Source of the DNA: a virus
DNA length: 64,000 nt
Virus record (IMG/VR): IMGVR_UViG_3300010316_000005
Span: 96,001 to 160,000 of that record
Strand: one strand, 5' to 3'
Of this stretch, positions 1 through 37,100 are shown piece by piece (position 1 is the first letter of the stretch; each line of letters begins with the position of its first letter). Under the pieces are notes generated by a model that was not told the DNA's origin, searched no databases, and saw only the letters and a list, made by a program, of their open reading frames with translations. The position numbers and the translations under genes were made by a program.

Positions 1-438
1 ATAAGGGCGATAATCGTCGCCCGTTAATGGATCTACGTAAATTGGCCTGTAACCAAGCTTTTCTACATAACTACCAATCAACAAACTATAACTCCCATCT
101 AGATATTCAACACCTGGTTTGTACGCTTTGCCATGAATAACAATATCGCTCATGCGAGGATTTTGCTGTGCTGCAAAGACCAAACGGTCAGCAATGTTTT
201 TTGCCTGAATCTCTCTTGCGTTCATTATAGCATCAAATAAATCGTAGCCTAGATCTAATTCACTTGCCATGTATCTTAATGCAATATTATCACGCGGATG
301 ACAATTGTGAACAACTACTCCGGTATTACTTTGTAGAAAGAATTGATCATCTTTTACTAGATGGCTTGGTTCAACTTCTACATTATAAACAGGACCGTTG
401 TAGTCGAAAGTTTCTATTTTTTTAATTTTTGTTTTCAT
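1..438 (-). CDS. ugd: Split-intein C-fragment (45 aa) fused to the C-terminal part of UDP-glucose 6-dehydrogenase (runs off window; missing from the ORF track)
   Basis: Manual translation from the ATG at 438: MKTKIKKIETFDYNGPVYNVEVEPSHLVKDDQFFLQSNTGVVVHN|CHPRDNIALRYMASELDLGYDLFDAIM...IHGKAYKPGVEY. Shows intein block F (VYNVEV), block G (VVHN/C), then the UGDH catalytic C-HPRD and a GKAYKP motif. ATG overlaps the upstream TGA (ATGA). Confidence 0.93.
   Translation of the reverse strand, partial: MKTKIKKIETFDYNGPVYNVEVEPSHLVKDDQFFLQSNTGVVVHNCHPRDNIALRYMASELDLGYDLFDAIMNAREIQAKNIADRLVFAAQQNPRMSDIVIHGKAYKPGVEYLDGSYSLLIGSYVEKLGYRPIYVDPLTGDDYRPY
304..438 (-). mobile_element. Split intein, C-terminal half (IntC, 45 aa)
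   Basis: Basic N-terminus (MKTKIKKIE), VYNVEV block F, ends His-Asn (Asn codon 306-304) followed by +1 Cys (303-301). Confidence 0.92.
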
Positions 439-1244
439 AATTTAATTCCTAGATTTTTTAAATCACTTTCTAACATTATTTTTAATTTTAAGTCTGGATG
501 TTGTTCGTTAAGTAACTCAAATTTTCTTTTTTGTATTCTATACCAATGACTTGCTTTTGGATCAACGTATGACCCCCATGCGTACACATAGAAATCGGGA
601 AAATAATGATGAGTTAGCCCGTCGTCACCTATATAAGGAATTTTACCTTTATGACATTCAAAGGATAAATTGTTATCGTCTAAATATTCTATAAACTTTA
701 ATTCGTATCTTCCTTGTACTTTATATGTAGCACCGTTACTATGTTTATATTCGTGCCAGTGCGCTTGTCCAGAGGTATTAGCATTATCATAACATCCTCG
801 CTCCCATGCATCAAGTGATCCTCGTTTAAACTTAGCACGAAATTCCGGGTCTTCCATAAGCTTAGATCTTGTAGCAGAAACCTTAGCTCTTATTTCCAGA
901 CGTTTCATTCCATTCTTGTCTCCGGCATTTACACCTTTTAGTTTTTTAGATATCTTATCTTTTATTTCAGTGCCGCGAGAAGTGTATGCATTTCTTACCC
1001 CTTGCGATACTTTCTCTCTAATTTCCGGTCTTGCTGCTAATATAGGACGCCAACATTTGTTACAATAATCTTTATCAAAATATTCATTTTTTTTCATTTT
1101 ACAATAATGACCTTTTAATCTGTTGTGCAAGTTCCCGCAAGAATCACATAACAGTTCAATATATTGAAGATTAACTTCTCGATATCCTGTTTTATTTTGC
1201 TTAGATTTTTCTTTTTTTCTTATAATGTATTCATTTACAATCAT
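435..1244 (-). CDS. Free-standing putative homing endonuclease (Zn-ribbon, NUMOD3-like repeats, C-terminal PD-(D/E)xK-type nuclease)
   Basis: CDSC...CNKC; EIREKVS/EIKDKISKKLKG/EIRAKVS helix repeats; YELKFIEYLD...YFPDFYV...YVDPK. Lies between the two halves of a split intein. Confidence 0.75.
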   Translation of the reverse strand: MIVNEYIIRKKEKSKQNKTGYREVNLQYIELLCDSCGNLHNRLKGHYCKMKKNEYFDKDYCNKCWRPILAARPEIREKVSQGVRNAYTSRGTEIKDKISKKLKGVNAGDKNGMKRLEIRAKVSATRSKLMEDPEFRAKFKRGSLDAWERGCYDNANTSGQAHWHEYKHSNGATYKVQGRYELKFIEYLDDNNLSFECHKGKIPYIGDDGLTHHYFPDFYVYAWGSYVDPKASHWYRIQKRKFELLNEQHPDLKLKIMLESDLKNLGIKL

Positions 1245-1249
1245 AATAT

Positions 1250-1255
1250 TATTTA
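1250..1255 (-). promoter_or_regulatory. T4-type late promoter core (gaTAAATA), 5 nt upstream of the endonuclease ATG
   Basis: Minus strand reads GATAAATA-ATATT-ATG. Confidence 0.6.
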
Positions 1256-1288
1256 TCTAAGCAGAATAAAACGAGCATGACAAGCGGT

Positions 1289-3421
1289 TCAGTCATCCAA
1301 TACATACAATTTGTCAGTTTTTAATACATTGTCTGCTCTTACTACAATTCTCAAATTATTGCGCCAAACTGGAATTAAGTGGTCAGCAGTTGTTATTAAC
1401 TCTGCGTCATCTATTATAAACTTATACATTTTTCCTGTATAATGCCTAGACGTTACTTGATCTATTTTTTTATAATCAATTTTAGAACAAGCATAGTTGG
1501 CTGATTTAATAATTCGAGTTTGATCAGTATCATTTATATAACAATCATACAACTCGGCAATACAAATTTCTTTATCGTCTACATTCACAAGAAAATCACC
1601 TAACACACAGCCGCCTCCGTCGCCCATGCCTGCCTTCATGTACTGTGGGCCCATAATTCGCATCGTAGACTGCGCTAGAGCGTCTGTAACAACGTCTACG
1701 TTAATGTTGCCCTGTTGCTCTGCTACGTCCTGCACCATGTTTACAAGACCGATTTTGGCACTGATGAATGTGTTTCCTTGCCACGTACATTTGCCGTTTC
1801 TCCGTGTAAGAAAAATATGATTCTTTGGAAGCATAGCACAGTATACTTTTCCGGTATAATCAACTGAATTAAATTTGAGGCCGACACTAGAAGAACTTTG
1901 ATATAATGATGTTTTATTAACTAACTCGTATATTAAATGACAATCTTTATTTGATAATTCAGTCCTTGTAGTTCTATATGACGGGGATCTGCCAACTTTA
2001 ATAATTAGTTCACCGAGATCTGCTGCCATTTGATCTGAACTAGAAGCATAATATTTATAACGTTGGTCGTCTGGTGATTTTGTACCATTAAAATGTGTAG
2101 TATGTAGAGCAGCGCCATCAGCAAGGTTATATGTATCTAGAAATAAACGAATCATGTCTTTTCCTAAATCTTTAATAATGCCAGGAATAAATTTATCAAA
2201 CGATTTTCCAAATTGGCTCAAGTATGTTGACAATTCGGGCCATAACACTGATATGCCTGTTCTTCCTGTTAATAGTCGGTATCTATCTTTTTCAGGATGA
2301 TTATTATATATATTAGAGAACACTTCATTAATCATTTCGTATTTGTCGGGATTCACATCCGAGCATTGCGAAATAATAATTCTTCCTGATTGATTACAAA
2401 TACATCCTTCTGATAAAAACCAAGCCATAAATTGTACATAATCTTCAGTTGCAAATGTCATTTCATTTACTGTAACCGTCTTTGGTGAATTGTTGTGCCA
2501 TTCAGTTGATCGTTGAAACACAAATCCTTTGCGCTTGATCACATCATGCGCTGGTTCTAACTTCCAATTATATCCATAATTTTTTCCAGGCAATTTGTTT
2601 TTTGTTGACATGCTACCAACAAACATATTATGCCCAGAAGTAACTAATACATCATCTTTGCTACTGTGAAAATGTATCATACTTCCATTGTAATCTCTTG
2701 AAACCCATTTATCAGGTGTTAACCATTCAGGGAGCATAGTAGCAGGATCCAATGACAATACTTGATCGGTATCGATTGCGTCTTTAAATAATTTCCACCC
2801 AGTTGAGGTTAACACCTCGGTATCATCTGAGTAGCAATTATAAAAAACCTTGATACATTCGCACTCGTCCCATGTTCCTACTACATAGCGCGGTTCATTT
2901 TCCATAATAGTTTTGTAAAAATCCACAAGCTGTTTTGCGTCGCCGGTTTCTGATCCGTCATTAGTTCCAATCATTATCATTTCTGGATTGACCATGTCCC
3001 AAGCCACACTTCCCATTGCAATTAGGTACGGATTATACACGAAACGGGTATTAGTTACTAGTGGTTCTAGTTCTCGTCTAACTGTGCCCGGCAGCACTGT
3101 TGAAATAAGGACCAGCAACTGATTTTCATTCATATGCTCGTTGGCTTGCGTCAGCACTTGCTTCACAATATCGTAGTCAAAGTCTTTTGGCGGTAAGTGA
3201 GCAGTAGGCTCTCTTCCGTCATATGACGGATCATGCGGCGTTGGTACTGCAACAAATACAATGTCTCTGCCTGCTATTGCACCTTTAACTGTTGGAAACA
3301 TAGTAACCAACTGGCTCTTGCGACGTTCTGTATCATATCCCGATACTTCATGTCCTTTTTGCGCCATTACTTCGGCACAAGGCATTCCAAGTTTTCCGAC
3401 GCCTATAAATCCTATTCTCAT
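1289..3421 (-). CDS. ugd: UDP-glucose/GDP-mannose 6-dehydrogenase N-terminal part, containing a cis intein and ending in a split-intein N-fragment
   Basis: Rossmann GxGxxG (GFIGVGKLG), FVAVPTP, ISTVLPGT, YNPYLIAMG, ECIKVFYN, then GMGDGGG followed directly by intein sequence. AGGAG RBS. Confidence 0.93.
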   Translation of the reverse strand: MRIGFIGVGKLGMPCAEVMAQKGHEVSGYDTERRKSQLVTMFPTVKGAIAGRDIVFVAVPTPHDPSYDGREPTAHLPPKDFDYDIVKQVLTQANEHMNENQLLVLISTVLPGTVRRELEPLVTNTRFVYNPYLIAMGSVAWDMVNPEMIMIGTNDGSETGDAKQLVDFYKTIMENEPRYVVGTWDECECIKVFYNCYSDDTEVLTSTGWKLFKDAIDTDQVLSLDPATMLPEWLTPDKWVSRDYNGSMIHFHSSKDDVLVTSGHNMFVGSMSTKNKLPGKNYGYNWKLEPAHDVIKRKGFVFQRSTEWHNNSPKTVTVNEMTFATEDYVQFMAWFLSEGCICNQSGRIIISQCSDVNPDKYEMINEVFSNIYNNHPEKDRYRLLTGRTGISVLWPELSTYLSQFGKSFDKFIPGIIKDLGKDMIRLFLDTYNLADGAALHTTHFNGTKSPDDQRYKYYASSSDQMAADLGELIIKVGRSPSYRTTRTELSNKDCHLIYELVNKTSLYQSSSSVGLKFNSVDYTGKVYCAMLPKNHIFLTRRNGKCTWQGNTFISAKIGLVNMVQDVAEQQGNINVDVVTDALAQSTMRIMGPQYMKAGMGDGGGCVLGDFLVNVDDKEICIAELYDCYINDTDQTRIIKSANYACSKIDYKKIDQVTSRHYTGKMYKFIIDDAELITTADHLIPVWRNNLRIVVRADNVLKTDKLYVLDD
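1292..1609 (-). mobile_element. Split intein, N-terminal half (IntN, 106 aa)
   Basis: Starts CVLGDFLV after GDGGG, has block B (LITTADHLIPV), ends ADNVLKTDKLYVLDD-stop with no block F/G. Confidence 0.9.
1772..2836 (-). mobile_element. Cis intein (355 aa) with LAGLIDADG-type endonuclease domain in UGDH
   Basis: KVFYN|CYSDDTEVLTSTGWK (block A), LVTSGHNMFV (B), FMAWFLSEG (C), FLDTYNLADG (E), KVYCAML (F), WQGN|TFISAK (G). Confidence 0.92.
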
Positions 3422-3440
3422 AAAGAATCTCCTTCTATCA

Positions 3441-3476
3441 TACTTATCTATGTAGTTAATGCAAGTTTAATAAATA
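3441..3476. promoter_or_regulatory. Divergent late-promoter-like cores (TAAGTA on minus at 3441-3446; TAAATA on plus at 3471-3476)
   Basis: Located in the divergent intergenic between ugd and the aminotransferase gene. Confidence 0.5.
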
Positions 3477-3498
3477 TGACTACGAAGGAATTTTATCA

Positions 3499-4086
3499 AT
3501 GTTTCACAAAATAAAAGAATTTGAAGAGCAGATTGCAGAATTTACCGGAGCGACTTACGCAGTAACTACAGACTGTTGCACTCACGCTATTGAATTGTGC
3601 TTGATACTTGACAAGATCAAGCAGTGCCATTTTAGTGCATACACATATCTGAGCGTAATACAAACTATGCACAAACTAGGAATTGAGTACACACTGATTG
3701 AAGAACCGTGGAAAGGTGAATATCAGTATTACCAAACACGTATTTGGGATAGCGCAAGGCGTTTAGAGCCGAATATGTATAGACATGGACAATTACAGTG
3801 TTTAAGCTTTGGTTTTGGAAAACCGGTTGACATTGGTAGAGGTGGTGCTATACTTTGTGATAACTATGATGATTATAAATTGCTGTCAATGATGAAATAC
3901 GATGGCAGAGATTTAGATATCAGTCCTTGGATTGATCAAACTTATTTTGTCCAAGGTTATCACTATAAACTAAATCCCGAGGAATGTATACGAGGTATGG
4001 AAGCACTAAAACAATACAAGCTAACCGGAGAGTATACTCCTAAAGAAGTATCATACCCAGACTGCCGGAGTGTAAAGATACAATGA
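3499..4086 (+). CDS. DegT/DnrJ/EryC1/StrS-family PLP aminotransferase-like protein (short)
   Basis: EFEEQIAEFTG..YAV..DCCTHAIEL, WDSA, LSFGFGKPVDIGRGG (SFxxxK...GG PLP-lysine motif). Confidence 0.8.
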   Translation: MFHKIKEFEEQIAEFTGATYAVTTDCCTHAIELCLILDKIKQCHFSAYTYLSVIQTMHKLGIEYTLIEEPWKGEYQYYQTRIWDSARRLEPNMYRHGQLQCLSFGFGKPVDIGRGGAILCDNYDDYKLLSMMKYDGRDLDISPWIDQTYFVQGYHYKLNPEECIRGMEALKQYKLTGEYTPKEVSYPDCRSVKIQ

Positions 4087-4742
4087 AGATACTTTGCTTA
4101 GGAGATAGTTGGACCAAAGGTTACGGAGTTATGCGTGACTGGACAAGATATTTACCTTTTGACGTTAAGAATGGCGCAGGAGACGGTGCAGGCTATGTAG
4201 AAATACTTAAACAATTCAAAAGATCTTATAACGATAGCTACGACTTAGTGATTGTAGGCTGGAGTGGTGCAACTCGTGACGACTATCTTGAATTTAGTAT
4301 AACTACTGACGAATCTATTGAACACTTTAAAGATAAAAGCTTAGACGATATACTCAATCGGTGGCACGAACACATTGATGAAATTGTGAATACTGCTAAA
4401 TGTCCAGTTATTCACTTTTCTGTATTTGGCGACGTGCCCGGAAAGCATTATGATAACTTTCTTGAGACTAGCTTTTTAGAATATCTAGCAAATCAAGACG
4501 GCATATATTTTAAGTACAACATTCCCTTATTTGAATTTGATTGGCTTAACGAAAACAATTTCAAAGTTACTGGCCCGTTTGGTAAAAAATATTTTCCAAA
4601 GAATTGGAAACGTGCTTGTGTAGAACGAGAAGCTGTGCGAGACCAAGGGTCATTCTTATACTGCGGACATCCTAATCAGCGCGGACACAAGCTATGGGCA
4701 AAATTTATGGAGATGGAAATTGACTGTTTATTCGCAAAATGA
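4083..4742 (+). CDS. SGNH/GDSL hydrolase-family protein
   Basis: N-terminal LGDSW and C-terminal GHPNQRGH. Confidence 0.7.
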   Translation: MKILCLGDSWTKGYGVMRDWTRYLPFDVKNGAGDGAGYVEILKQFKRSYNDSYDLVIVGWSGATRDDYLEFSITTDESIEHFKDKSLDDILNRWHEHIDEIVNTAKCPVIHFSVFGDVPGKHYDNFLETSFLEYLANQDGIYFKYNIPLFEFDWLNENNFKVTGPFGKKYFPKNWKRACVEREAVRDQGSFLYCGHPNQRGHKLWAKFMEMEIDCLFAK

Positions 4743-5637
4743 GTGGAGCCAACTAAAACGAATCGTAGTAGGTTCCGCAGTAAACGCACACTGGCCTGCC
4801 GAGTGTCCTGTGTACCGAGCGCAAGAAAAAACCACCAAGTGGACAGAGACTCCTGTACCCAGTGGCCCAGTTAATCCGTTTGTTATAGATCAGGCCAACG
4901 AAGACTTAAACAACTTTTGTAACAAACTACTCGACGCAGGTGTTACTGTATTGCGACCTACAATAATGGACTTTGCTAGCTTCGATGGTATGTACAATTA
5001 TTGCCCAAGAGATCGTGTACTCATTGTAGGCGATAAGATTATCAATGCTCCGATGTTGTATCCGACTCGTACTAGAGAAATCGAAGCACTTGAACATATG
5101 TTTGATACCGATATAATAACGTGCGACGATGAAGACGCTACGTTTGACGCAGCTAACGTATGTCGCCTAGGAAATGATTTACTGTACCTAGTTAGTGAGA
5201 GTGGCAACCTGGCAGGTGCACGGTGGTTACAGCGCGTCTTAGGCACCGACTACCGCGTACACATCCTCGACAACATCTATGCAGGAGTACACATCGACAG
5301 TACTATCACACCTGTACAAGAGGGACTAGTTGTGCTCAACGGTGACAGAATAAACGACGGCAATCTGCCTGAGGTATTTAAAACGTGGGATAAGATTTAT
5401 GTCACCGGCGATGACATTGCTGCACAGTCATTTATTGAATATCCTTACGCAAGTAAATACATTGCGCTAAACTTTTTAACTGTTAATCCAAATCTTGTAA
5501 TGTGCGATCCGTATCAAGAATTTTTAATACACGAACTATCAAAGCGCAACGTAGAAGCAGTAGGTGTACCGCTAAGGCAAAGCAGAACATTAGGCGGCGG
5601 ACATCATTGCGTTACACTAGACTTGGAGAGAGAATAA
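4720..5637 (+). CDS. Amidinotransferase (glycine / scyllo-inosamine-phosphate amidinotransferase family)
   Basis: SQNEWSQLKRIVVG, YCPRD, FDAAN, HIDST and C-terminal LGGGHHCVTLD with the catalytic Cys. TTG start. Confidence 0.88.
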   Translation: MTVYSQNEWSQLKRIVVGSAVNAHWPAECPVYRAQEKTTKWTETPVPSGPVNPFVIDQANEDLNNFCNKLLDAGVTVLRPTIMDFASFDGMYNYCPRDRVLIVGDKIINAPMLYPTRTREIEALEHMFDTDIITCDDEDATFDAANVCRLGNDLLYLVSESGNLAGARWLQRVLGTDYRVHILDNIYAGVHIDSTITPVQEGLVVLNGDRINDGNLPEVFKTWDKIYVTGDDIAAQSFIEYPYASKYIALNFLTVNPNLVMCDPYQEFLIHELSKRNVEAVGVPLRQSRTLGGGHHCVTLDLERE

Positions 5638-6134
5638 TGTGGTCAATAGGACAAATTCCAGAAGGAATTATTACAGACGAGTTTAAAGAACTTGATTACA
5701 TCAACGAACCATTTAATGATCCTAAGATAGCCGAAGAATGGGACAAAACATATGGTCCGATATATAGCACAGGCGAGATGGTTGACTACCGACATTACCA
5801 GCCTGCTTGGTATAACAATATTGTTGATTACCTTAAGTTGGGAATAGCAGGAGCCAGTTTTTACAAAATGGGACCTGGTAAGATACTTCCTTATCACAGT
5901 GATGCATATGTGCGCTACATTGAGTACCACAAGATTAAAGACACTCGGTGCATTCATCGAGCAGTTGTATTTTTAGAAGATTGGCAACCCGGGCATATTT
6001 TTGAAGTAGATGGAGTTCCGCTGTATAATTACAAAGCAGGCACATATGTTCTATGGCAGTACAACACTCCGCATATGGCTGCTAATCTAGGGCCGACCAA
6101 TAGATACACTTTACAAATTACAGGTATAAAATGA
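5637..6134 (+). CDS. Cupin / 2OG-Fe(II) oxygenase-like protein
   Basis: True start is probably the ATG at 5637 (TAATG coupling). PYHSD...PHMAAN...R metal-binding pattern. Confidence 0.65.
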   Translation: MWSIGQIPEGIITDEFKELDYINEPFNDPKIAEEWDKTYGPIYSTGEMVDYRHYQPAWYNNIVDYLKLGIAGASFYKMGPGKILPYHSDAYVRYIEYHKIKDTRCIHRAVVFLEDWQPGHIFEVDGVPLYNYKAGTYVLWQYNTPHMAANLGPTNRYTLQITGIK

Positions 6135-22107: not shown

Positions 22108-25100
22108 TTAGTTTCCGGCACGTATAAACGACCCTATGTCAGTTTTTGTTTCACCTAAGGTTTCACCAGTTAATGTCCAAATTCTTCCTGTTTTTCTCAT
22201 CACAACAATCTTTTCATTGTTTAATGGTATACCGTCGGCATGTATATCGTCCTGAATGTCAAAGCTAATAATATCACCGTCGATTGTAAATTCTGCTTGC
22301 TGCACAAGATCACCATCTGGTGAGTCAAGCGCCACTACTTCACTAAACTTACTTATCTCATTCTTCCTTAGTCGGCGGCCACCTACGAAAACTTCAACTT
22401 CGTTAATACCATATGATGCCTGCAATGTAGAATCTTTGTAACCGATAGTTATGCTCTGGCTTCCATCTCCGATAAAGTTACGCAGAACTGTTCTATCATT
22501 GTAAGGAACAGTTTTTCTAGCGCCTTGATCAAACACTTCTTCTCCTGCTGAATATGTATCTTTAACTCCTGTACCAAGTGTACCTCTGCGAAGTTGCCTT
22601 AGTAGATTACCGTCTTTTACTAGGTATTCAATGCGCTCGCCATCAATCCAAACAATGCCCGGTTTATTAGACTTCTTGTCCGGTGCTGGTAGCAACGATG
22701 CGTCTTCTACTTCAACTCTTAAATCATAGTAATTTAGGTCCTTGCTAAGAACTGTTACAGCATCGTTAATTCTCTTGTAGTGAGTTCTATTAAGAACATC
22801 CTTAAAGATTCTGTAGGCAAATTTAGGCACCGAAACAGGAGTAGCAAACTGCACTACTTCTATAACATCGTTTGTTCCCGGAGGAGTTGTTAGCTGGACC
22901 TTTAATCTGTCGTCAGTAATATAATAGTCAACGCTCGGAGATAGTAAGATTCCATTTTTTGCAACCCATACGTATTGCGCATCTTCTGCCGGCTTTCTCA
23001 GTTTGATTTCACCGTATGATAGACGCTGATAAGTTTTTGCTTCCTTGCTTCCCGGAACAATAGCAAATCTTGACACAACATCATAGTTCTGTTTTTCAAT
23101 ACCAAGGATGTCGTGGTTTGAGAATTTAATAATTTCAATTCTTTCATTTACACCAGGTGCATATTTAAACGTAATATTGTTGTTGTCAAATGTATATTCA
23201 CTATCAGAAATTAGGTAAATTTCCAGTAAATCGCCTACGTCACCTGTACCGTCATTTAACCTAATCGAGTTGGTATTCGGATTCAGAAGCCACCTGTTAG
23301 GCGTCTCTATTATTGCGCCATTTAAAAATACGCGCAGATTAGTAGTGTCAATAGTCGTTGACGGAAACTGGAATGATTCAATTGCATATTCTCTAACATC
23401 AATGCTTTTGATTTCATACTGAATATTGTATCCAGAACTTAGAATCTTATTTCCGACTTTTACCAAGCAGTTGTGTTCGGTTGGCTCAACAAAGAATGGC
23501 GTTTCAGCAATCGGAAACACCGTAGATGCTCCGTCACCGATTAATACTTCTTTATTAACTTGACTATAATTTACTTCAGTGTTATTATCAAACACAATAT
23601 AGTTGATTGTCTGTCCAGTTTCTGGTGTTACTGTTAGGCTAATAGTTAAAGTATCTTTACCTTCTGTTTTAGTAGCACCGATCTCAACGTTTTCGCCATC
23701 AAGAGTTAAGAATACACCGTATCCATCTTTGAAATAAGTGTTAATTTCGTACTCATCAGTATCGGCAACAGTCATAGCCTTTCCAAAATCAATAACATTT
23801 TGTACACCCGCTTCCAGTGTTACTATCGATAGAGCGTGCCCTTCAGTTAAGTCAGGAATATTAATTGTTAAGTTGCTCCAATCAACGTCATAATCGCCTC
23901 GGGTTAATATTATGCCGTCTACTTTTACAACAATTGCGTCAAGACTCGACGGAGTTGCACCTAAGTCAAACGTTTCATTTACTCCGTCAGTAATGTGATA
24001 CTGGCTAACAATCTTACCTGGACCGGTCGAGTCTCTTGTATACACTCTTAAATCCAGTGTATCCATTACTTGACCTGGTACCATTTCTTCTGGTCCAGTT
24101 GACGTAGTAGCAGTAACAAAGCTGTCGCCGTCTACAATAATATCTTCTGCTTTTAACCCAGTCGCAGTTGTCTTGTCAAATGCTCCACCTGTTAATTGAG
24201 TATCATACGATGCCGGATCCGGTGCCACAGTACCATCTGATGTTATTTTTCTAATAATCATTATGTCGCCGTCTTCAGTGGCAATATCGTAATCACTCAG
24301 AATAAACACATCAGTTGTGCCGTCGCCTGTAATACTTTCTAGTTTAGCATCTTCGTTAAGTTGTTCTTCAGTGCCAAAATTAGGATCATCAATTCTGACT
24401 CCATTCAAATAAACATTGTACACAGTGCCGCTTTCAAACGGTTCGTCTAGACCTACTGCAACAGTTGAGCCGTCAAACGTAAACACATAGTCTTCATATG
24501 AATTATCAAATTCGTCCCATGTATCCGTATACCAATCATTTGTGTTCCAACCTTGCTCTTCACTAAATCCAAACGATGTAACTTCAACACCGCCATAGTC
24601 GACACCAGTCATTAACTGTGCTAAATCTTTACCGAGCATACCGCTCAGTGCTGTATAGCCAAATTGTATTCTGTCTTCTGCACTTAACATCGACAGTGGC
24701 TTCTGGTAGCTAATTACGATATTTGCGTCTAATGCAGGTGGATTAGTAAACGTAACTTGTCCTTGCTCTCTAATATATCCAGCATCTGTGTTTGTTACGT
24801 TACGGAAAGTAAACTGACTACGAAGCATTTCTTTTCCGTCTACTGTTACTGTCACAGTGTCTAACCGTAAGTTCATTGGCCATTCTAAGTTAAACGTTGT
24901 TTGAGAATTCGAACCAACGAACGTTTCAGTTTCTGCTAGCGAGTTAATGTAGTACTTGCCCGACGTTCTATCAAACTTGATAGTGATGCTCGGAGATCTC
25001 ACTACGCCGGAGCCAAGTATTGCTGATGCTCTAGCCACAACGCCGTTTTCTACTTGGGGAACAGCAATATTAATAGCAGGAGCACTTGTATAACCTTGGC

Positions 25101-28100
25101 CCGGGTTAGTAACTTTAATTGCTGTTACCTTTCCGTAGCCAATGTACGCTTTAGCAGTGGCGCCGGTTCCGCCGCCTCCTACTAATTCTACAGTTGGTGC
25201 AAACACATATCCGCTGCCTGCATCTCCAATCATAATATTAGTAATTTGTCTACCATAGTTGTCAAGCCAATTCTTCCTTGGGTATTGACTTACATTAGGA
25301 TCAACATTTAGCAATCCGCCATCTTGGAAGATTGCTCTATTTGGCACAATCTTCTTTTCAGTTTCACTGTAGAACGGTGGCAAGTCAAAATCTGTTATAA
25401 CACTATTTGTAGGCTCTAGTCTTTCTTTTACGCTTACAAATTCTCTAATAACAGTCTTGTACGGCTTCACTTCGTTTACATATGCTTCGTAGCTTGAGAG
25501 TGTATTGCCGTCGAAAGTAACATCTTGATCAAACTCACCAAGATTGTGATTAATTTTAACATAGCTTGTCTTGAATAGCCAGTCAACATATTGCTGCTCA
25601 GACATCACATAACGCAAGCTTGCGAAGAATAGTTGGTTATACTCTCTTCTCAAGTTGCTTGTAAATATACTGTCGCGGATTGCTTTAAATATAATTCTCA
25701 ATTCAACTTGAGCATCATTGTCATAAAACGTGCTATCATAACTACGGTTGTCAAAACCAACCTTATTCTTAGCTGTGTTATATAGAGATTCTTTAAACTG
25801 TATTGTACCGTCTTGACGTCCAATAGTTTTATAGTCTACTGTGTAATCTTCAGATCCAGTGTTGTCAACTTTTTCAAGTAGCAACCAGCCGCCTGTTCCG
25901 ACGTTTTGAATTTTAACAATATCACCTATGCTATCTGCCAACGCGGTTAATTCATATGACTCAGTTATAATAAAGTCACTTGATGTAAATTCATTATACC
26001 CAGTTGCATACCAATCAGCATAATCCCAATACAACGGAACATTGTAGTCTTGCACACTTCTTCTAAACCATTCTGATGCTTCTTCGTTCCAGGCCCATAT
26101 TGCCCATCTGCCATCAGCATCAGTGTCGGCATTAACAAGTACTGAGAATCTTCTTACTGTAATTCTAGTATTTTCGTCGTACCCTGTTCCTCTGCTTAGT
26201 ATCTTAACTGCGCTAATTCCACCTACGTTAGTAAGTGTAAGCTCTATTTCAGCATCTGTGCCTGCGCCGACAATTGCATACTTCGGAGCAGAACGATAAC
26301 CTCTACCTGCACTTAGAATGTTAACTTTAGCTAATTTACCATTTCTAATCACAGGCTCAAGTATTGCAGGAGTAACCTTGTTTGTACTAATGAATCGTAA
26401 TTCATCAACTGTGTCAACTGTTAAGTCAAACTCTTTCGAAGCCGACGTCGGCTTAGGTTCTGTTTCAAACAATGCCGATATATCATACTCGTCAACTACA
26501 ATGTTTTCGAGCAACACAAGGTTAACTCGTTCAATATATTGCTTTAGAGCTTCTTCGCGGTTTACAAATATACCCTGACGTGGCTTATTTTGAATTCCGT
26601 ACTTTTGTTTAGGTGACAGGTCTGGGTTAGGCACTGGGCGACCTTGTTCGTCATAACCAATTAAGCTATCAAACCACTTTCGTTCAATCTCACTATGCGG
26701 TACACTATTCTCGTCACCATCGCTAATAATCTGATATTGACTGTGCGTATTTTGCTCATCTCTTTCGTTTTCAGTATATCTGATATTTAGAACAATATCT
26801 TCGTTATAGATTAAGCTGCCTATGTTATTTAGAACAATTCTGTCCGCAGCAAGCAAGCTAGCAAATCTGTAGCCTTCTTTTCTCGGCTGCGCAATAAGTC
26901 TACTTACGTCAAACGCACTAACCTTTCTATCAATTACTGCATCAGTTGGAATTGTCTTCTTGTTAGCGACCCAGAAGTAGTACTTTGGAATAAACCGTTG
27001 GGCAACGCTGTCATAGTCAAATGTCTGACTGAAGAAATCATCACCATACAGAGATTTACCACTAATGCCTCTTTGAATGCCTAACTCTGAATCAGCAATC
27101 TGATCCCAGTTTGACGGAGGCACTGCGCTCTCAACCCATTCAAATACGTTAACAAAGGATCCTGGTTGTAGTTCATTCCAGTTTGCTTTTTGATACTGGA
27201 TGTCTCCCTGATAAGGATAAGTGAATCTTGTTGTTTTTGTATACCACCATAATTTACCAACATGCTCCGGGCCCCAGAATGTATCTTCTGTTACTTCTGG
27301 CCCTGCTCCTACGTTATATGTTGCCGGATCAATTCCCATTTCATAATGCAGTTCTTGCTTTGCAGGACCGGCAATCTTTCCTTGTATTGGATCAATGTAA
27401 TCCAGGTATTGAACAATGCTGTTTGTTCTCTTATTATAAAGGAACATGCCTTTAATCTTAGATACATCAACTGGCGGAATAAGTTCTCTTTTCTTATTCC
27501 ATGCAAATTTTTCATTTGGCTTTCTATATTCAATTAACTTGCCTTTCTTAGGCATTCCGATGTATACGTGGTTACCTTTGGCAAATATGTTTTCGCCAAA
27601 GTCAAAGTCTGCTAGGTCATAGCGGAATGACTCTGAGAATATTAACGCATTTTCTATTTCTTCGTATACGTAAACTGTACCCGAATCTAGTATGATATTA
27701 TTAAAGTCAGTATAACCTTTATCAAATGTAGTTATAACACCCGAGTCTGCGTCAAACGTAGTTGGTATTATCATGTCACCTCTGGCACTACTTACGATTA
27801 GGTTGTCGCTACTAAATGACATCTTATCGCCAAAACGTTCTGCTAACTCATTCTTAGGTGACTTTAATTCCTGCGACAATACAAATTGCTGATTTACTAA
27901 TGAATATATATAAATCTTGCCTTGGTTGTACTTTACATCATCGTTAAACTGATCTGATATAGCAATCTTTGTACCTGCTGGATTAATCACAACCGAAGAA
28001 CCAAATGTATCTCTGTCATCAGGTGGGTTAATTTCTTGTACTTTTTCATACTTATTATCACGTTGACGATATACCAGGACCTTACTAATAATAGAACTGT

Positions 28101-31100
28101 CAAACGCTGCTCGCTTTTCAGAAATTATAACATAGTTGCCTGATTCTGTAACAGCGAAGTCTGAGTCAACTACTGTTGGATCGTTTTCTGACATTGCCGA
28201 ATCAAAGTTTGTTGGAAAATACTCTGATTCTCCAAGTAACGCTTGGCCTTCGTTTACAGGCAATACGCCTAAGTAATCAACTCCTGACGAAATTGCTTCC
28301 CAATTAGTAGAGCCAGTATTAGGAGTTGCTGCGCCGATTGGTACGTTAGTAAGAGCTCTAAATAATCCCACGCCAGTGACATTTACAATCGAACCTTCTC
28401 CGTAGGCTGCATCGGTGCTGTTGAAAGTTCCCCTAAAGTTGTCATCGACTCCACGTCTCCAGCTTACTTTTCTCCACAATAGTTTATCGCCAATTGACAC
28501 TGACGTTTGGTTAAACACCGGCTGCAATGCTTTATAGTAATCACCTAGGAAATATACAATATCATTTGTTTCATAAACATTGTTTTCTCTCCAGTTACCT
28601 TTAAATGTGTCGTCTCTAGTGTACCCGTGCTTGAATATTTCAACGCTGCCTTGGGCATTTGACACATACAATGTATACTCGTTGTCTTTCTTGATAAGTT
28701 CAACTTTAGTACCAAAGTTTGTAGTATCTGAGTCGTAAGCATACTCTGAAACTAAGTTCAATAGCAATTGATAACTACCTGGTGCATCTTTATAGTAAAT
28801 TGCTACTGCACCTTCGTTAGTTTTTGACGAACTACCAAACTGGTCTGCTACAATGTTATAAATCTGAGTATAATTCTTGTTTAGTACTGTTGGATAAACG
28901 CTTCTAAAGCTGCCTGCATTATCATCCTCTTCGGTATAGATCCAATATTCTTCATTAATAATTGGATCAAACCCGTCAGCTGGATCAAAGTCAGTATCTT
29001 TTTCAAAAACTAAGAACTGTAAGTTGTTAGTGCTAGTGTTTACAACAAAGCTGTCTTCGACATCATTAACTTTTCCTATTACTCTGTTGACTGTATTGCC
29101 ATTTGCAACACTTGGGTTGAGAACAATCTCTGTAGTAGCTAGGTTGTTAATAGTTGCATAAGTTCCAGCAGTGTACTTAATGTACACTCTAACATTTGTT
29201 AAGCCTGTTTGATATGCGACTACTTCAGCAGTAAATGTTGATTGTGCATCAGCCGCCGACGGCTGGCCAAACTGATCAAATGGTGTCTGTCTATCTGTAA
29301 TAATATCAGATATGGATGGTTCAAACGTGTTGCCAAGGCCGTCGGCAACTAGTTGAATGTCAATAAATCCATCCCATTTGTCAACTAACGTCTGGGTTGC
29401 ATTTAAAATGCCATAATTTAGCCCTGTGTTAGCAAAGTCAATTGTTCTGTTACTTAGGTCATAAAGGTAAAAGTTTAATTCTTCAGTTAAAGAAAGCGTG
29501 TCAGCAAACGATTTGTTTACTCTAGAAATCCATCTGCTGTCTGCCACAGGAGTAATATCATTAAAATAACTTAGATTTTGAACATAGCTAGATGTGTTAA
29601 TCAAATCAGTTGTATTGTTTTCATCGTCATTTACATTATAGTACACAGCATTAGTCGTGCCGCCGTTGGCGTAAGCATCAACGTATACTAATCCTTTACC
29701 AGCATCAGTATAGTTTTCATTGTTTATGTAAGAAAAAGGACTAGTATCAATCTGCCACCAGCCGCCGAGGCTTTGATTTTCAGTTGGCTCAATTTCTACA
29801 TAATTACCAATTAATGGCCCCGAAGCTGTTTCGTATTGAATGAATATCGAACCACTTACTGCAAAGACGCCAGTTGTATCTGCAAGATAAATTATAAGGT
29901 TTACACCTGCAATCTTAGTATAAACAACAGTTGCACTAGCAGTCGACGTTGTTAATATATCGCCTACTTGCGGTGGGTTAATGTAGCTATCTACTCGAAC
30001 AATATGATCTACTTTATTAACTATGCTATGGCCGTTGCCGTTGTTATCAATAAGTTCTTTACTAATAATTGTTGAATCTTCAAACGTAATAGCACCATCA
30101 AAAGGTTCCCTAACATCTAAATCGCCATTTGTATAAGACTGCAAATTCCACTGCAATCTAACTTCGTCGCCTGCAATTAGAGCCTCGAACTGATCTGCTG
30201 GCGCTCTAACTAAGATGTGATCAGTTGCCTGAGCTTCTTCTAGCTGTAGACTAGGGTCACCTGTAAGTAATAGGCTAGAGTCAAGATCAGCATCTCCGTT
30301 TGCTGTTCTTAATTCAACATACGAACTAAACGAATTAAAGTCTAATCCAGTTCCTTCGTCTACTTCTGGTTCAATGTCTCTGTGTGCTTGCCATAGCGTA
30401 TTTCTATATTTTACAATATCATTTTTGCCATAGGGTGCAGATGCCAAATATTCACCTCTGTATCTAGTCTTAACACTCGATGCTCCCGGAATACCTACTG
30501 CTATAAATGTATCGTCATCCGATATCGACACACTTTCGCCGAAGCGAGCATTGTCATCGTTAAACAATACTGTTTCTAACGTAAGAGGCTGTTGCTGAAT
30601 AAACATTGCAGTTTCTGTGTTTCTAGTGTATAGGTCAACCTTGCCGGGTGTGTTAAAGTTATCAATTTCAGGATCAGGGTTGACATCAATAGTATACCCG
30701 GGCGATGAAACTATCATAGTTGTTTGTTTTTTAGATACATCAACATCATAGGAGAAACCATTTTGCGATGAGCCGTCACCTGTTATATCTACTATAGTGC
30801 CTTGCTCCCTGTACACACTATTGTTTTCGAGCACACCCCAATGGGCGTTGCTATAGTCATCAATCCAAATTCTTTGGTTATCATATATATTTTGTTGTAT
30901 GATATCGTTCACCGAAGTCAAGTCAGGAATTCTTACTTCTCTAAGCTTAACCATAATTAACAATTCTTCATCAAAATCAATTATTTCGTTATCTTCAGGT
31001 ACAATAATTTGCAGTGTGTTAAACTTTGATTCGTACACTTCGTAGAATCCGTTAACATTATAATCCTGAGCAGCTCTTATTGCAACAAATTCTCCATTAG

Positions 31101-34100
31101 CTACTTCTTCAGCAACCCAGGCATCTACTGTAATTTCTTTAAGTGATTCGTTCTTTTCAGTAACGTCGTCAATAGTCGCTAACGTTGTTGCGTTTCCGAA
31201 GTTCTCGTGAATTTGGTAAACTGACCAGTCATCTCTGCCGTCGTCTGTTAACCAAATGTATTGACCCTTGTTTAACAAGTTAACATCAGTACTGTTAATT
31301 TCAGCTTTTGACCCTGCTTTGAATTCTACATCATTTTCATGTACATATCCACTGTCAATTACAAAACTTTTTAGAGTTGTTGTCGGGAATGGCGTACTAG
31401 TATAACCTTCTGGCTTGTCAATTAGATCCATTGGACGAATTCTGTAGACTTTATCTTCAATTGTAGGATCGATTGATTCTACAAATTCAATACCTTGAGG
31501 TTCTTCGTAGAACTGAGTTTCATCAAGTTCAAATTCAATTTGCTCTATGTCTGTAGTTGCTCCGTAGCGACCTAGCTGTATTGCCCAATCTTCAAAGAAT
31601 TCTAAGCTGTCTCTGTCTGAGCTGCCAAGGGGATTGAATAGCTTTTCAATAGCGTTCTTTGTACCCTTGTCTTGAATAAATCCTTGATAGAACTTATACT
31701 GACTCACATCATCATTAATGATATTTGCTAGATAGTCTCGTTTCTGGTACCCAATTAAGTGCTGCGCAAGACGCTGTTGTTCAGAGTCAAAATTATCCGA
31801 GTCTAGGTCATAGAAATCTGTAAATTGATTGATTCTATAATCAAAGTTTGTTAGCAGTTCTGCTACAGGCTTTTCATTTAATCTAATCCAGAAGTTTGGG
31901 TTAAAGTCTTTTGATCCTGGCACAGCAAAAGTTGCTACATAAAAGAATTGCTTGTATTTTACAAGACTACCAATTTCATAATCTTTCCAAGATTCCCATT
32001 CTGTTGCTCTGGCATCGTCATAAACAAATCCAGGAATGTTTAAGCTCCCGTCCCAGTTATCAGAACGATATCCTAGTACCTTGATTCTTTCTTGACGGTA
32101 CCCAGTAGTTGGCTGATAAATTACATCACCAAAGATAGTTTCATTGTCTAATAGAACAACATGTTCTTTTTGTACAAGAGGCAACACAATGTTGTACACG
32201 CCGTCGTTGTTTTCTCTAACCTTGATACCAAATTCATTGCCATTTCTTTGAACGCTGTTAAATCTGCGCTCTAACGGAAGTCCATCTGACTTTCTCAAAG
32301 AGTACTCATAAAAGTCATCAAAGATATCATCAACGACAGCAAAGTCTCTCTTAAAGTTTACTTCGTATGCACTTGGGCTCAGTGATATAGTTGTTCCTGC
32401 ACTCCATCCCTGGGTTGTCCAGAACAAGAATTCTCTTGCCATTTGACTCCAGTTTTCAATTGACTCATTTACATCATTGAAATAGTTAAAGTCAAATCCT
32501 TGTGATTCAAGGTATGCACCGTATCCAAGAATAAAGCTAACTACGTCTTGGCTTGTTTTTAGGCGTGTTCCATAAGATAGGCGCTTTGTTGTTCTAGTGT
32601 CAAAGTTTTTGTAAAACACTCCGCGTTTTCCGCCAACGATCGGAACTTCACTTAGCTTAATTAAATTTTGAGCATCAAACGAGTCACCACTTGTAAAGTT
32701 TGCTGTTGCTCTGTAATACTGGCTTTCAAACTCAACAACTTGACCGTCATAGAACGGCTTGTTAGGATCCCAATCCACACTCGTTTCTGAAATTCCTCCA
32801 ACTACAATAGTTCTGTCGTTAGTTGTAGGTATTGGGTCAAAGTAGTTCAAGAACGGATTGTTATCAAAGTAGCCTCTTACAACAAATCCGTTTGCTCGTT
32901 TTTCAACAATGATACCACTGTATACAGGTGCGTCAATTGGCGAACTTGTGTTTAAGAAAACTTGGTAGTTCTCTTCTGGCACAAATACGCCGTCTTCGAT
33001 ATTTTCGCGAGGTGAGCGGCTGTCTAGTAGCAATTGGAATTTACTCTTATCAGTAAATCCTCCAACGCGCAGTCCCATCTGTGTATTCATAGATGTTATG
33101 TCATTTTTATAATCATCATAAACACTAACAATGTTGCTCGATAGCAGATTGTAAATGTAGTTTACTAACCCACTTGTATTTACTCTTACATTATCTCGAT
33201 ATGTGTTTGGAAAAACAATTGACTTATTTGATATCTGTGTTAGTGTATCAGTATAAGTGTACTGTCCTGCTAGGTTTCTAAAGACTCTTGACAAGTCGAA
33301 CCCTAGTCCCATAACTCTTGCCGGGTTAGCTAGCAACCATGCTTTAATAAGTGCAAACGGATACTCAGCACTTTTTCTCCAAGCAGACTCAACTGGAGCA
33401 ACATCGCCAAATATAAAATCATCTGACGTATTTCTGTAAAAGAAGTTTTTAGCATATCCACTTTCAATCGGTGATTTTAATTTACCCTGAGAATCAACTG
33501 GAATATATTTTGTAAAGTCCGGACGGGCATATCTTGCTCTAGTTACTAATTCTTTATTTGGTTCACGGACATATCCATTTTCAATGTCCTGCCATAGTAC
33601 TAAGTTATTTGCACTATAAGGGGCTGGGCCATAAGTTGTATCCCACCATTTTGGCTTAAGAGTAAATCCTAGCATTTCCCATGGGTGTGAGTGTGGTCTA
33701 TCAGTGTCTAGGAATTCTCTGTAAACACCTCTCCAAAATCCTGGTAGTACTTCGCCGTCAATAGCAGACGTCATTTTGTAATAGTTATATGTGTACTGAT
33801 TTTCTCTTTCATAGAAGTCGTTTTCAGTATAATCACTTTCTACTACTCTCGACCATTGTATAAAATCTTTTAGGACTAGATCGTTAATTTCTTTCCTGTT
33901 GTACGCAGCCGACCTGTACTTGCCGCCTACAAAGTCGTGGATATTCAGCAGTGTGTTTTCGTAATCGACTTTAATGTTGTTGAATATTCTCTTCTCAAGA
34001 TCTAGCAGTAGGTTGTCTCTGTAGTCTTTGTATGCTCTGATTGTACTACCGTCATGTCCTTGAACCATAGCAATACCAACTGAGTATTCTTCAATCTCCG

Positions 34101-37100
34101 GATTGTCCTGGGCTCCAAAGAAACCATCAGTTGTTGGAATATAAAGTAGCTTACTTAAACCAGCAAATCTCAGAGTAGTAGCTTGGTCGTCACAGTCTGC
34201 TTGACCAGCGTACTTCTTGTTTGTATAAACTGGATAAAACCAACCAACGCAGCCATCTTCATTTTGACCATAGATCTTAAATGGACCTTGGGCAAATGGC
34301 TCTTCAGTTTGGTATGTGTCATCAATGACAATTTGTGGTTCGTACTTTGGATACATGCCTAACTTAGATGGAGTTGGCGGAATAAATGATCCGTCAGTTG
34401 TTTCGTATTCGTAAACTTCAATAGTATCGCCATCTTTTTGTCCAGCAGTAACTAAGACAAATCCTTCTTCACTGAAAGTATAATCTTTGCCATGGATCAG
34501 TTGCGAACCGTTTAAGTACACGTTGATTGCTCTACTCGATAGTTCTGTTAGATTAAACGGATTAGTTAGTGCATAAAATGGGTTGTCTGGATCTTCAACA
34601 TCAAACTCAATACGATTAGTAGTTGTGTATCCAATCATATCCGAGAAGTAAAACGGCTGAGTCTTAATTTTATCTCTATTAAGATCCTGCAATAGTCTGT
34701 CAACGTGCTGCTTAGCCGGAGCGTCAATGCCTAAGCTTTCTGCTCTACTTAAGAAAGTTCTCTTAAATGTAGCATACTCGTTCTTGGCAAATTCAATTGA
34801 TTTAACGATGTTGTACTCTTTGCTAGTAAAGTGATATAGTGCTAAGTTGATCGGACCACTGTGCTTTACAAATCTTCTTCCATAACGATCTACGTTTCCT
34901 AAGTCTCTTAGGTTTGACTGGCCAGGATACGTGCCAGTAAATTCACGAGTTTCTTCGACAATAGAACTAACATGGTCAATTGCTTCACCAAGTGTAAATT
35001 CGTTAATGTCTTCATTACTTGGATTTCTTTCAAAGTTGATTGGAAATTCGTAGAACCCGTTGTTATTCTTAGAGGTTGCTGAATGCGATTTCAAAACAAT
35101 TTTGTCGTCTACAGCAACATCGCTATAGAATCGCACTAATGCTTTGCCATTAACTCTGTCGATTTCGTAATCTGCGGCTGCTGTTTGAATCCTGTTGTTT
35201 CTGTAAACACTTACGGCAAGATCGTTCAAGTCGCCTGCTCTATTATAAACATCAACTTCGAAGTTGTTTAGTTGAGGACCAGCAACATACTGTCTAACTA
35301 CTTTTTGCTTAGTTATCTGAGCAACACTTGACCAGCCGTTGACCCACGCAAAATTTGTTAAGTCAGTGTACTTGCGCAGATTACCTTTGTTAGCTTCAAC
35401 TGTAATAATTTCTTCATCGTTTTGAACTGTGAAGCTATCAGTTGTTAGATTAAATTCAAATAGTATGTCACCTGAGTTGTTAATATTCTTGTATGTTAAT
35501 GGAAATCCTAGTTCTGGATCATTTGCTCCAGTACCTTCTTTGTACGAAAATACCTTCGTACCATTAAATGATGAACTGTCGAATGTTGCTAAATCACCAT
35601 AGAAGTTTCCTTCTGGGCAACATAAGTCAAACAACGGTGCTTGGTTTACATTGTCTTTTTGCTGAGCTACGTTCCATACATCATACTGGTAATAAAATGC
35701 TGTGCCGCCATACGTATCACCTGTTCTCACAAATACCACTTCTAGATCCTGCGGAAAGGTGTCGCTAACTTCTTGTAGCGTAATTTGCGGAACGTTTCCA
35801 ATTGTAACAAATTTAACTTCGTAAATGTTGCCTGTAACTAATATGTCAGTGTCAGCAGTAAACAACACTCGCATACCGTCGACTAAATCTACGCCGTCGA
35901 TATTGTATCCAAAAGATCCTTCAATAGTTGAAAACACATCTTTTGTAAATGTATCAACTAAATCGATATCTTGCTTTGCTTCTGATCCAAATCTGTAAAG
36001 TTTTAGTCCTGCTTCAAATTCGATAATAGGACGCTTGGCTCTAAATGACTCGTCAATTACAACAGGAAGTCCGTTATATTCTAGGCTCTTTTCTAGAACA
36101 TTTTTATGGAACCATCTGTTATAACGTGACCACGGGTTTCTATCTGGGCTAGCTCTGTTAACTACTAAGTAGTCTTTAGTTTTTGGATAAGCACTGGAAT
36201 TTTCAAAAGGCAGTCTGTCATACGGAGTGCCGTCCCACGGTACAAGGTCGTCTTCAGAAAACGCATTTAGAAGAACTAGATCACTTTCTTTAACTAATCT
36301 TATTTGGCCGCCTACACCTTCCACATACCAAGCATCTTTTTCATATATTGCCGGGGTCACATCGCCTTGGAAAAACACTTTTAATCCGTTTGTAAATTCT
36401 ACGCCGTTCGAACTTTTGTATGTTTTCTTACCGATAATGTCTTTATCAACGTCAAGGAACGTATTTTCTTCAATGTTGTTAATTCTCATTTGACCGCTTG
36501 TGTCGACGTTATTCTTTGAGATATAAAACAATCTGTCAGGTGCGTTAAGTGGAATAGTAAATTCAACTACTCCTGACTCAACGTATACTGTTGCCAACTC
36601 TTGACCGTCAGTTGCTTCTTTAGAAATGCCGTCATTGTAAATAGTGCTAACATTCTCGTCATCGCCAAACGATACTGATCCTGCGTCTGGCGTCACAATA
36701 AAGTCGCCGATGTCATAGTCGTTACCAAACAACTCTGAATCAAAAAGTCCCTGGCCTCGAATACCTTCACGTCCAGCTACTACGAGAACTTCTCCAGGCA
36801 GGAAAGTTCTCGATAAAGCAAATGCAATTGGGTGGCCTGGTGTATCAATTTCAAAGCGATACGTTTGTCCTCTATATAATTTTAGAGTCGGATTCTTTTC
36901 CAACGTGCTGTTAAAGACGTATGATGTGTTGTCGTCATCTTCTGCCAGAGTAACTGTATAAGTACTCACTACTTCCTTGCCTTGGCCGCGCACAGGAACG
37001 CTAATTGGTCCTGTAGGAGCCCAGTAGTACTCACGGAAGTTTACAAGCTTGTCCCAATCAACATTAGGGTTCCACGCATATGTTTCTTGTGCGTTTAATC

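Follow-up and report, generated by a model that had tools for sequence, protein, structure and literature searches.

Can a virus encode a sugar-nucleotide dehydrogenase as two separate polypeptides and restore it by protein trans-splicing? The question is raised by the beginning of a 64-kb window, by which we mean the whole stretch of DNA analysed here (64,000 nucleotides, positions 96001–160000 of the 175.7 kb IMG/VR virus record IMGVR_UViG_3300010316_000005). There, a gene of the UDP-glucose dehydrogenase (UGDH) family lies in two pieces with an endonuclease gene between them, and the pieces carry the N-terminal (IntN) and C-terminal (IntC) halves of a putative split intein at the break, as a preliminary description of the window had proposed. 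Our analysis makes it highly probable that this is a fractured dehydrogenase gene, in which a mobile cassette of IntN, a PD-(D/E)xK endonuclease and IntC occupies the codon of the catalytic cysteine, and that the enzyme is rejoined by trans-splicing.

The dehydrogenase gene is broken at its catalytic cysteine

All features of the dehydrogenase locus lie on the minus strand (Table 1), and the N-piece, the endonuclease and the C-piece are three separate open reading frames (ORFs). The N-piece (3421..1289, 710 amino acids) ends in GMGDGGG/CVLGDFLV (a slash marks a predicted intein boundary), where the cysteine opens the 106-residue IntN that runs to a TGA stop. The C-piece ORF begins at 438, reads through the 45 residues of IntC to VVVHN, continues as CHPRDNIALR and leaves the window; the complete C-piece (L001:1321-1938:-) has 205 residues. 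IntN, the endonuclease and IntC occupy three different reading frames. Coordinates and sequence on both sides of the break are those given in the preliminary description.

Eighty loci were found when viral contigs were scanned with the C-piece; about 57 are uninterrupted and 19 are interrupted in the same way. The uninterrupted homologues read ...GMGDGGGCHPRD... and align without gaps to the two window pieces, with 72–79% identity over the first part of the N-extein and 82–96% over the second. Because some 57 homologues are continuous and colinear over this point, the alignment indicates that the halves would join exactly as GDGGGCHPRD, the product already suggested, and that the junction is not a chance resemblance.

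The matches to known families cover both pieces. The first part of the N-extein matches Pfam PF03721 (E 5e-18) and PHROG 9148 (E 1e-68), and residues 550–609 of the N-piece match PF00984 (E 7e-8). Within PHROG 9148 (UDP-glucose dehydrogenase, 382 profile positions), the best stretch of the N-piece, residues 1–198, corresponds to positions 1–212, while the C-piece from residue 45 onward corresponds to positions 261–358. The features of UDP-glucose/GDP-mannose dehydrogenases are present, namely an NAD-binding N-terminal domain, a central domain and a catalytic cysteine motif of the GGxCxxKD type. When an uninterrupted homologue was compared with the solved UGDH structures 3vtf and 4a7p, its GGGCHPRD aligned over their GGsCfPKD, the cysteine of which is the thiohemiacetal- and thioester-forming residue of UGDHs. 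The claim that the gene is broken at the catalytic cysteine is thus upheld by this alignment.

Among GenBank phages, window positions 1–6000 gave no megablast match, and tblastn with the C-piece found only intein-free homologues (Bellamy, HTVC008M) and no cultured phage with the intein. HTVC008M was suspected of having a split gene as well, but was rejected, as it has a single ORF of 381 amino acids.

The two halves are predicted to form one class 1 intein

Across seven lineages whose inteins are only 41–68% identical, Cys1 is invariant (Cys or Ser in distant relatives), as are Thr74 and His77 of block B (TTADHLIPV; T-x-x-H-L-x-P). In IntC, all lineages keep the VYNxEVEP strand, and 19 of 19 loci have the terminal VVHN/C. 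The separate-polypeptide layout, with a stop after IntN, a change of frame, and an ATG and Shine-Dalgarno sequence belonging to IntC, recurs in at least 19 loci. A phmmer comparison of IntN with the PDB matched 9hth, the Aes123 PolB1 split intein in fused form (E 4e-5).

The fold was modelled on a relative, L024, in which only a short spacer separates the halves. With its two TAA codons translated as Gln (translation table 6), it gives an artificial read-through chain of IntN, linker and IntC, which was modelled with AlphaFold2 (AF2) from an alignment of the halves and of contiguous relatives. The model has a predicted local distance difference test score (pLDDT) of 84, with the halves above 90, and a predicted template modelling score (pTM) of 0.79. 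Its best PDB match in Foldseek is again 9hth (E 2.8e-9, template modelling (TM) score 0.70), followed by the NrdJ-1 split intein, and the top matches are inteins or related HINT domains, most with TM scores of 0.6–0.7. IntN and IntC together are accordingly modelled as a HINT fold, and the conserved residues and the model both support the assignment of the halves to a class 1 naturally split intein that would splice in trans.

The halves of DnaE-type split inteins carry opposite net charges; such charge complementarity was looked for in IntN and IntC, and the two do not have opposite net charge. This favours a different view, in which the halves are non-covalent association domains, or the enzyme works as two chains without ligation, like the Aeh1 NrdA fragments, and split genes whose products reassemble without splicing are indeed known from T4-like phages (cited in PMC2677866 and PMC3045599). 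Against it, the residues needed only for splicing (Cys1, the block B Thr and His, and the terminal His-Asn) are invariant at 41–68% identity and under strong purifying selection, and an unspliced enzyme would have 150 extra residues directly at its nucleophile. We consider assembly without ligation improbable.

The gene between the halves encodes a candidate homing endonuclease

In the endonuclease, an N-terminal CxxC...CxxC region is followed by a long helical stretch in the centre and by a nuclease domain of the PD-(D/E)xK type at the C-terminus. The last 90 residues match T7 endonuclease I, marginally in Pfam (PF05367, 29.6 bits where the cut-off is 29.1) and also in the PDB (1m0d, E 1.2e-6), and E181, P216-D217 and D228-x-K230 are invariant across six endonuclease lineages. 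In VIA-align, the modelled nuclease domain superposes on TnsA (Z 8.8), Vsr (Z 6.0) and I-Bth0305I (Z 5.3), with the last two of which it shares the fold superfamily only; a Foldseek search with the whole endonuclease model returned nothing at E ≤ 0.001. We propose that the protein is a T7-endonuclease-I-like homing endonuclease of the PD-(D/E)xK type, as predicted from these matches and the modelled domain.

The gene is closely knit to IntC. The ATG of IntC (438–436) overlaps the TGA stop of the endonuclease (437–435) as ATGA, and an AGGA Shine-Dalgarno sequence for IntC sits within the final endonuclease codons. On the other side, the spacer between IntN and the endonuclease holds an ATAAATA box (1256–1250) 5 nt ahead of the endonuclease ATG, and a second such box (3470–3476, plus strand) lies in the divergent gap between the dehydrogenase gene and a plus-strand operon. 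Both resemble T4-type late promoters. Since the window has fewer copies of the motif (15) than shuffled sequence would give (about 25), a promoter role for the spacer box is kept as speculation; a promoter scan did not exceed the counts obtained after shuffling, and a terminator scan found none. A hairpin upstream of the endonuclease was not found either, the z-score being 0.01 for the spacer and about 0 across loci, except for −1.9 in L006.

The cassette is under purifying selection and moves as one unit

The ratio of non-synonymous to synonymous substitution rates (dN/dS) was taken from the pair L043/L079, where dS is unsaturated. IntN has a value of 0.079, the endonuclease 0.081 and IntC 0.043; exteins and intein halves alike lie in the range 0.04–0.14. 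IntN, the endonuclease and IntC are therefore under purifying selection. In all 19 loci the three ORFs are intact wherever the contig covers them, and likewise in about 10 more.

These values bear on the idea that an endonuclease recently invaded a dispensable gene and left it dead. The gene is uninterrupted in most related phages, and a dehydrogenase is an auxiliary function outside the replication and structural core, both of which would suit such a history. A dead gene is nevertheless improbable, because selection is purifying and the ORFs are intact in about 29 loci; moreover, L024, which has no endonuclease, still has intact halves with their Shine-Dalgarno sequence and ATG.

Several lines of evidence concern the movement of the cassette. 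In the L043/L079 pair, dS is 0.24–0.50 for the cassette and 1.7–3.1 for the flanking exteins. The intein tree agrees with the endonuclease tree, and both conflict with the extein tree, where split alleles stand at four or more separate places (at least four) among intein-free alleles. The exteins of L003 and L010 are 83% identical as protein and 60–83% as DNA, whereas their cassettes are about 99.5% identical, the only differences being a 5-nt indel and a single substitution in the spacer and one further substitution in the endonuclease. The stretch of identity opens with the first nucleotide of the intein, the extein base just before it being different, and stops 33 nt into the C-extein. Finally, in a DNA metagenome containing the window sequence (run X5), a contig joins position 300 to 1608, as in an allele lacking exactly the cassette, although the joint has only 28 nt on its shorter side. 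Because the tree conflict, the L003/L010 tract, the low dS of the cassette and the cassette-free allele agree, these sequence comparisons indicate that IntN, endonuclease and IntC move as one unit, in the pattern expected of a homing footprint.

The fractured layout is found in at least 29 viral contigs, as a scan with the endonuclease added about 10 further fractured UGDH-family loci (L095, L101–L108), which extend to other UGDH subfamilies, to the 19. A more distant one, L110:1152-3269, lies in a canonical UGDH of the CFPKD type; its endonuclease is 35% identical, and here it is the IntN stop that overlaps the endonuclease start as ATGA. A word-based protein search with IntN found only five close relatives, whereas an IntN profile found 188 matches among 1.84 billion representative proteins, and many of these matches end within a few residues after the IntN domain. 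They include several UGDH subfamilies (flanks GMGDGGG/C, GFGGH/C and AGT/C) and family B DNA polymerases. A scan of GTDB genomes found nothing, which is weak evidence of absence because a single IntN-profile pattern was used.

Among the polymerases, the N-pieces P0062, P0075, P0118 and others end in a homologous IntN, with the flanks GVW/CCHPD and DTD/SVVGD. These two flank types suggest, therefore, that the same intein clade also fractures PolB at two sites.

A relative keeps the split intein but has probably lost the endonuclease

In L024, the intein halves are separated by 21 nt, in frame, and there is no endonuclease. The spacer contains two stop codons and a Shine-Dalgarno sequence, both halves are intact, and the ATG of IntC is kept. 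Every endonuclease-bearing lineage has an endonuclease C-terminus of the form LGI(K/D/N)(L/V), and the DNA at the 3′ end of the gene is conserved as TAGGAAT, about 6 nt and ATGA (exactly TAGGAATTAAATTATGA in four lineages), a stretch that provides the Shine-Dalgarno sequence and start codon of IntC. L024 retains this endonuclease 3′ tail directly after its IntN stop. The simplest reading of the retained tail is that L024 derives from a fractured ancestor by deletion of the endonuclease ORF, which would have left a stable split intein.

Phage endonuclease genes often lie in group I introns, and the removal of 439–1291 from the RNA, which the preliminary description had named as an observation that would overturn it, or a recoding read-through would also yield a contiguous intein, but this is almost certainly not the case, as Rfam finds no intron or other RNA family in positions 1–4000 at E ≤ 1, the three coding parts lie in three frames with an ATGA overlap, the L024 spacer has its two stops and Shine-Dalgarno sequence within 21 nt, and an RNA-library contig (365–515) crosses the endonuclease/IntC junction unspliced with no RNA joint seen, a weak point because the library (run X11) may contain DNA.

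Other observations, in addition to the missing charge complementarity, weigh against a fractured dehydrogenase rejoined by trans-splicing. The AF2 model describes an artificial read-through of a relative and not two chains; the Pfam Intein_splicing model gives 21 and 12 bits against a gathering cut-off of 35.8; and the contigs of the possibly DNA-containing run X11 do not cover the N-piece, though the lack of RNA contigs over parts of it is given no weight. The dehydrogenase itself scores 151 bits with TIGR03026, the NCBIfam model for nucleotide-sugar dehydrogenases, against a cut-off of 189.8, and the NCBIfam equivalog models score far below their own cut-offs. For this reason 'UDP-glucose' is used here as a family label only: the domain and motif matches place the enzyme, as a divergent member, in the UDP-glucose/GDP-mannose dehydrogenase family, so that the name first given to it holds for the family. 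Despite these points, the conserved splicing blocks, the predicted HINT fold, purifying selection, mobility, the endonuclease-free relative and the lack of an intron signal all speak for the fractured-gene layout.

The N-piece contains a second, contiguous intein

The preliminary description had read ORF 1289–3421 as UGDH followed by IntN, which is correct, but overlooked a cis LAGLIDADG intein (2839–1775) in the same ORF. This element, intein 1, is bounded by VFYN/C and QGN/T and is inserted directly after the Asn of a conserved K-x-x-x-N motif, which in UGDHs holds the catalytic Lys and Asn. It is absent from 80 of 80 related UGDH loci, where the sequence continues as VFYN-TFISAK, and a joint in a DNA run is consistent with an allele without it. 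Compared with NCBIfam, intein 1 has a weak match to an intein-bearing helicase model. A 66% identical copy occupies the same site in a 758-residue gene, L084 (L084:1919-4195), which has no split intein; because of this locus, the two inteins can be said to assort independently, to judge from their distribution. The window is the only locus with both, among the loci seen.

Elsewhere in the window, a gp46/SbcC-like ORF (52139–54982, plus strand, 947 amino acids) has a Pfam LAGLIDADG_3 match at residues 280–346, while residues ~48–413 match PHROGs of unrelated proteins (terminase, primase, helicase loader). It probably holds another contiguous intein.

Proposed route from fractured gene to enzyme

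Two polypeptides would be made, N-extein-IntN and IntC-C-extein. The first would also shed the cis LAGLIDADG intein, and translation of the second would be coupled to the endonuclease ORF through the ATGA overlap and the internal Shine-Dalgarno sequence. IntN and IntC would associate as a class 1 HINT fold and splice in trans by means of Cys1, the block B Thr and His, the terminal His-Asn and Cys+1. The predicted product is a 409-residue enzyme reading ...GMGDGGG-CHPRD..., with the junction peptide ...AGMGDGGGCHPR. Dehydrogenase activity would be expected only after splicing, because Cys+1 is also the nucleophile of the enzyme and its two substrate-binding domains are on different pieces. The endonuclease would cut intein-free alleles near the insertion site, and repair would copy in the whole cassette (homing); in the L024 lineage the endonuclease would later have disappeared while the split intein stayed.

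It is conceivable, if rather unlikely, that splicing serves as a switch. The dehydrogenase would then become active only after one cis and one trans event at two active-site positions, with the C-terminal half placed under the late-type transcription and translation signals of the endonuclease, so that sugar-nucleotide oxidation would be timed during infection, or redox-dependent through Cys1 and Cys+1, and L024 would represent a domesticated form retained for this use.

Genomic context

Neighbouring genes include those for baseplate wedge, baseplate hub, portal and gp46-like proteins, on the basis of which the window phage, a marine one, is assigned to the T4-like myoviruses. A single ORF of 5118 amino acids (22108–37464, minus strand) adjoins the baseplate and fibre genes. 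The features of the locus are given in Table 1.

Table 1. Features of the fractured dehydrogenase locus, in window coordinates
Feature	Position	Strand	Evidence
N-extein part 1, UGDH-family residues 1–194, ends ...ECIKVFYN; NAD-binding domain and start of central domain	2840..3421	-	PF03721, PHROG 9148
Putative cis intein (intein 1), 355 aa, C195...N549, +1 Thr, LAGLIDADG motifs	1775..2839	-	absent from 80 related UGDH loci
N-extein part 2, residues 550–604, central domain, ends ...KAGMGDGGG	1610..1774	-	Pfam PF00984
Predicted IntN, 106 aa (CVLGDF...LYVLDD) and TGA stop (1291–1289)	1289..1609	-	splicing residues, PDB 9hth match
Spacer, 44 nt, IntN stop to endonuclease start	1245..1288	-	sequence
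Predicted free-standing endonuclease gene, 269 aa	435..1244	-	Pfam PF05367, PDB 1m0d
Predicted IntC, 45 aa (MKTKIKK...GVVVHN)	304..438	-	conserved VYNxEVEP and VVHN motifs
C-extein from catalytic Cys (CHPRDNIALR...); ~180 nt more outside window start	1..303	-	PHROG 9148

Comparison with known split and contiguous inteins

The combination of a fractured gene, a split intein and a free-standing homing endonuclease was described by Dassa et al. 2009 (PMC2677866) for gp41, IMPDH, NrdA, NrdJ, DnaE, ligase and terminase. All eight host types were described as DNA synthesis or repair enzymes, the endonucleases were GIY-YIG or Vsr-like (EDxHD), upstream hairpins were reported, and further hosts and endonuclease types were foreseen. 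The window gene resembles these in its order (N-extein-IntN, endonuclease ORF, IntC-C-extein), in its phage and metagenomic origin, in being split at the canonical endonuclease-insertion loop and in having its insertion at an active-site residue. It differs in its host, a sugar-nucleotide dehydrogenase and not an enzyme of DNA synthesis or repair, in its endonuclease, which is T7-endonuclease-I-like (E...PD...DxK) and neither GIY-YIG nor Vsr-like, and in having no hairpin found upstream of the endonuclease. The arrangement would thus be extended beyond DNA metabolism to a sugar-nucleotide enzyme, and a third endonuclease type would be added to it. The locus also offers unusually clean natural evidence that a whole IntN-endonuclease-IntC cassette is mobile as a single unit.

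By sequence and fold, the closest characterised relatives are the PolB split inteins of T4-like phages (Aes123 PolB1/CL, CP21, LCGC14; PMC12707363; PDB 9hth). Their halves are of similar size (IntN 115–120 and IntC 39–46 residues) and the phages that carry them are of a similar type. They are, however, cysteine-less, with Ser1 and Ser+1 in place of Cys1 and Cys+1, their host gene is different, and their identity to the window family is only about 18% in a structural alignment. At least seven split inteins with Cys1 and Cys+1 make up the window family; they are far from the inteins in current use and are flanked by Gly at −1 and by Cys-His-Pro at +1 to +3. They could be candidates for orthogonal ligation, although many split inteins are already available and any practical gain hinges on splicing kinetics.

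In archaea, for example M. jannaschii, and in a few bacteria, UGDH is already listed among the hosts of contiguous inteins (the 'udp' or UDP-GlcDH allele; PMC4760082, PMC4071816). The contiguous UGDH inteins that we retrieved, the mini-inteins P0055, P0058 and P0083 and the LAGLIDADG inteins P0158 and P0159, all occupy the site of the window intein, directly before the catalytic cysteine. They differ from it in being single chains that splice in cis, with a nested LAGLIDADG endonuclease or none. P0158 and P0159 are two 900-residue proteins named 'UDPglucose 6-dehydrogenase' with the intein at GYGGS/C...N/CFPKD, and P0055 is in a canonical UGDH (GFGGH/C...VSHN/CFPKD) related to the L110 gene (35–44% identical). 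The mini-intein of P0055 aligns end to end with the L024 chain (E 9e-15) and on that alignment is clearly homologous to the split intein; for the N-terminal splicing region of P0158, homology to IntN is probable (hhalign probability 70%, E 4e-5). One insertion site thus appears to hold an evolutionary series that includes a contiguous LAGLIDADG intein, a mini-intein and a split intein with its endonuclease lost.

The comparison also limits what is special about the locus. The preliminary description had singled out a splicing nucleophile at +1 that doubles as the catalytic residue; since the contiguous UGDH inteins share the site, this coincidence is a property of the classical insertion site and is not new to the split form. 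Its other suggestion, that UGDH had not been described as host of a split intein, agrees with our search of the open-access literature, where no paper reports a split intein in UGDH or a sugar dehydrogenase. The layout has been known since 2009, and what the window adds to it is a split intein in a host of the UGDH family, together with a T7-endonuclease-I-like endonuclease.

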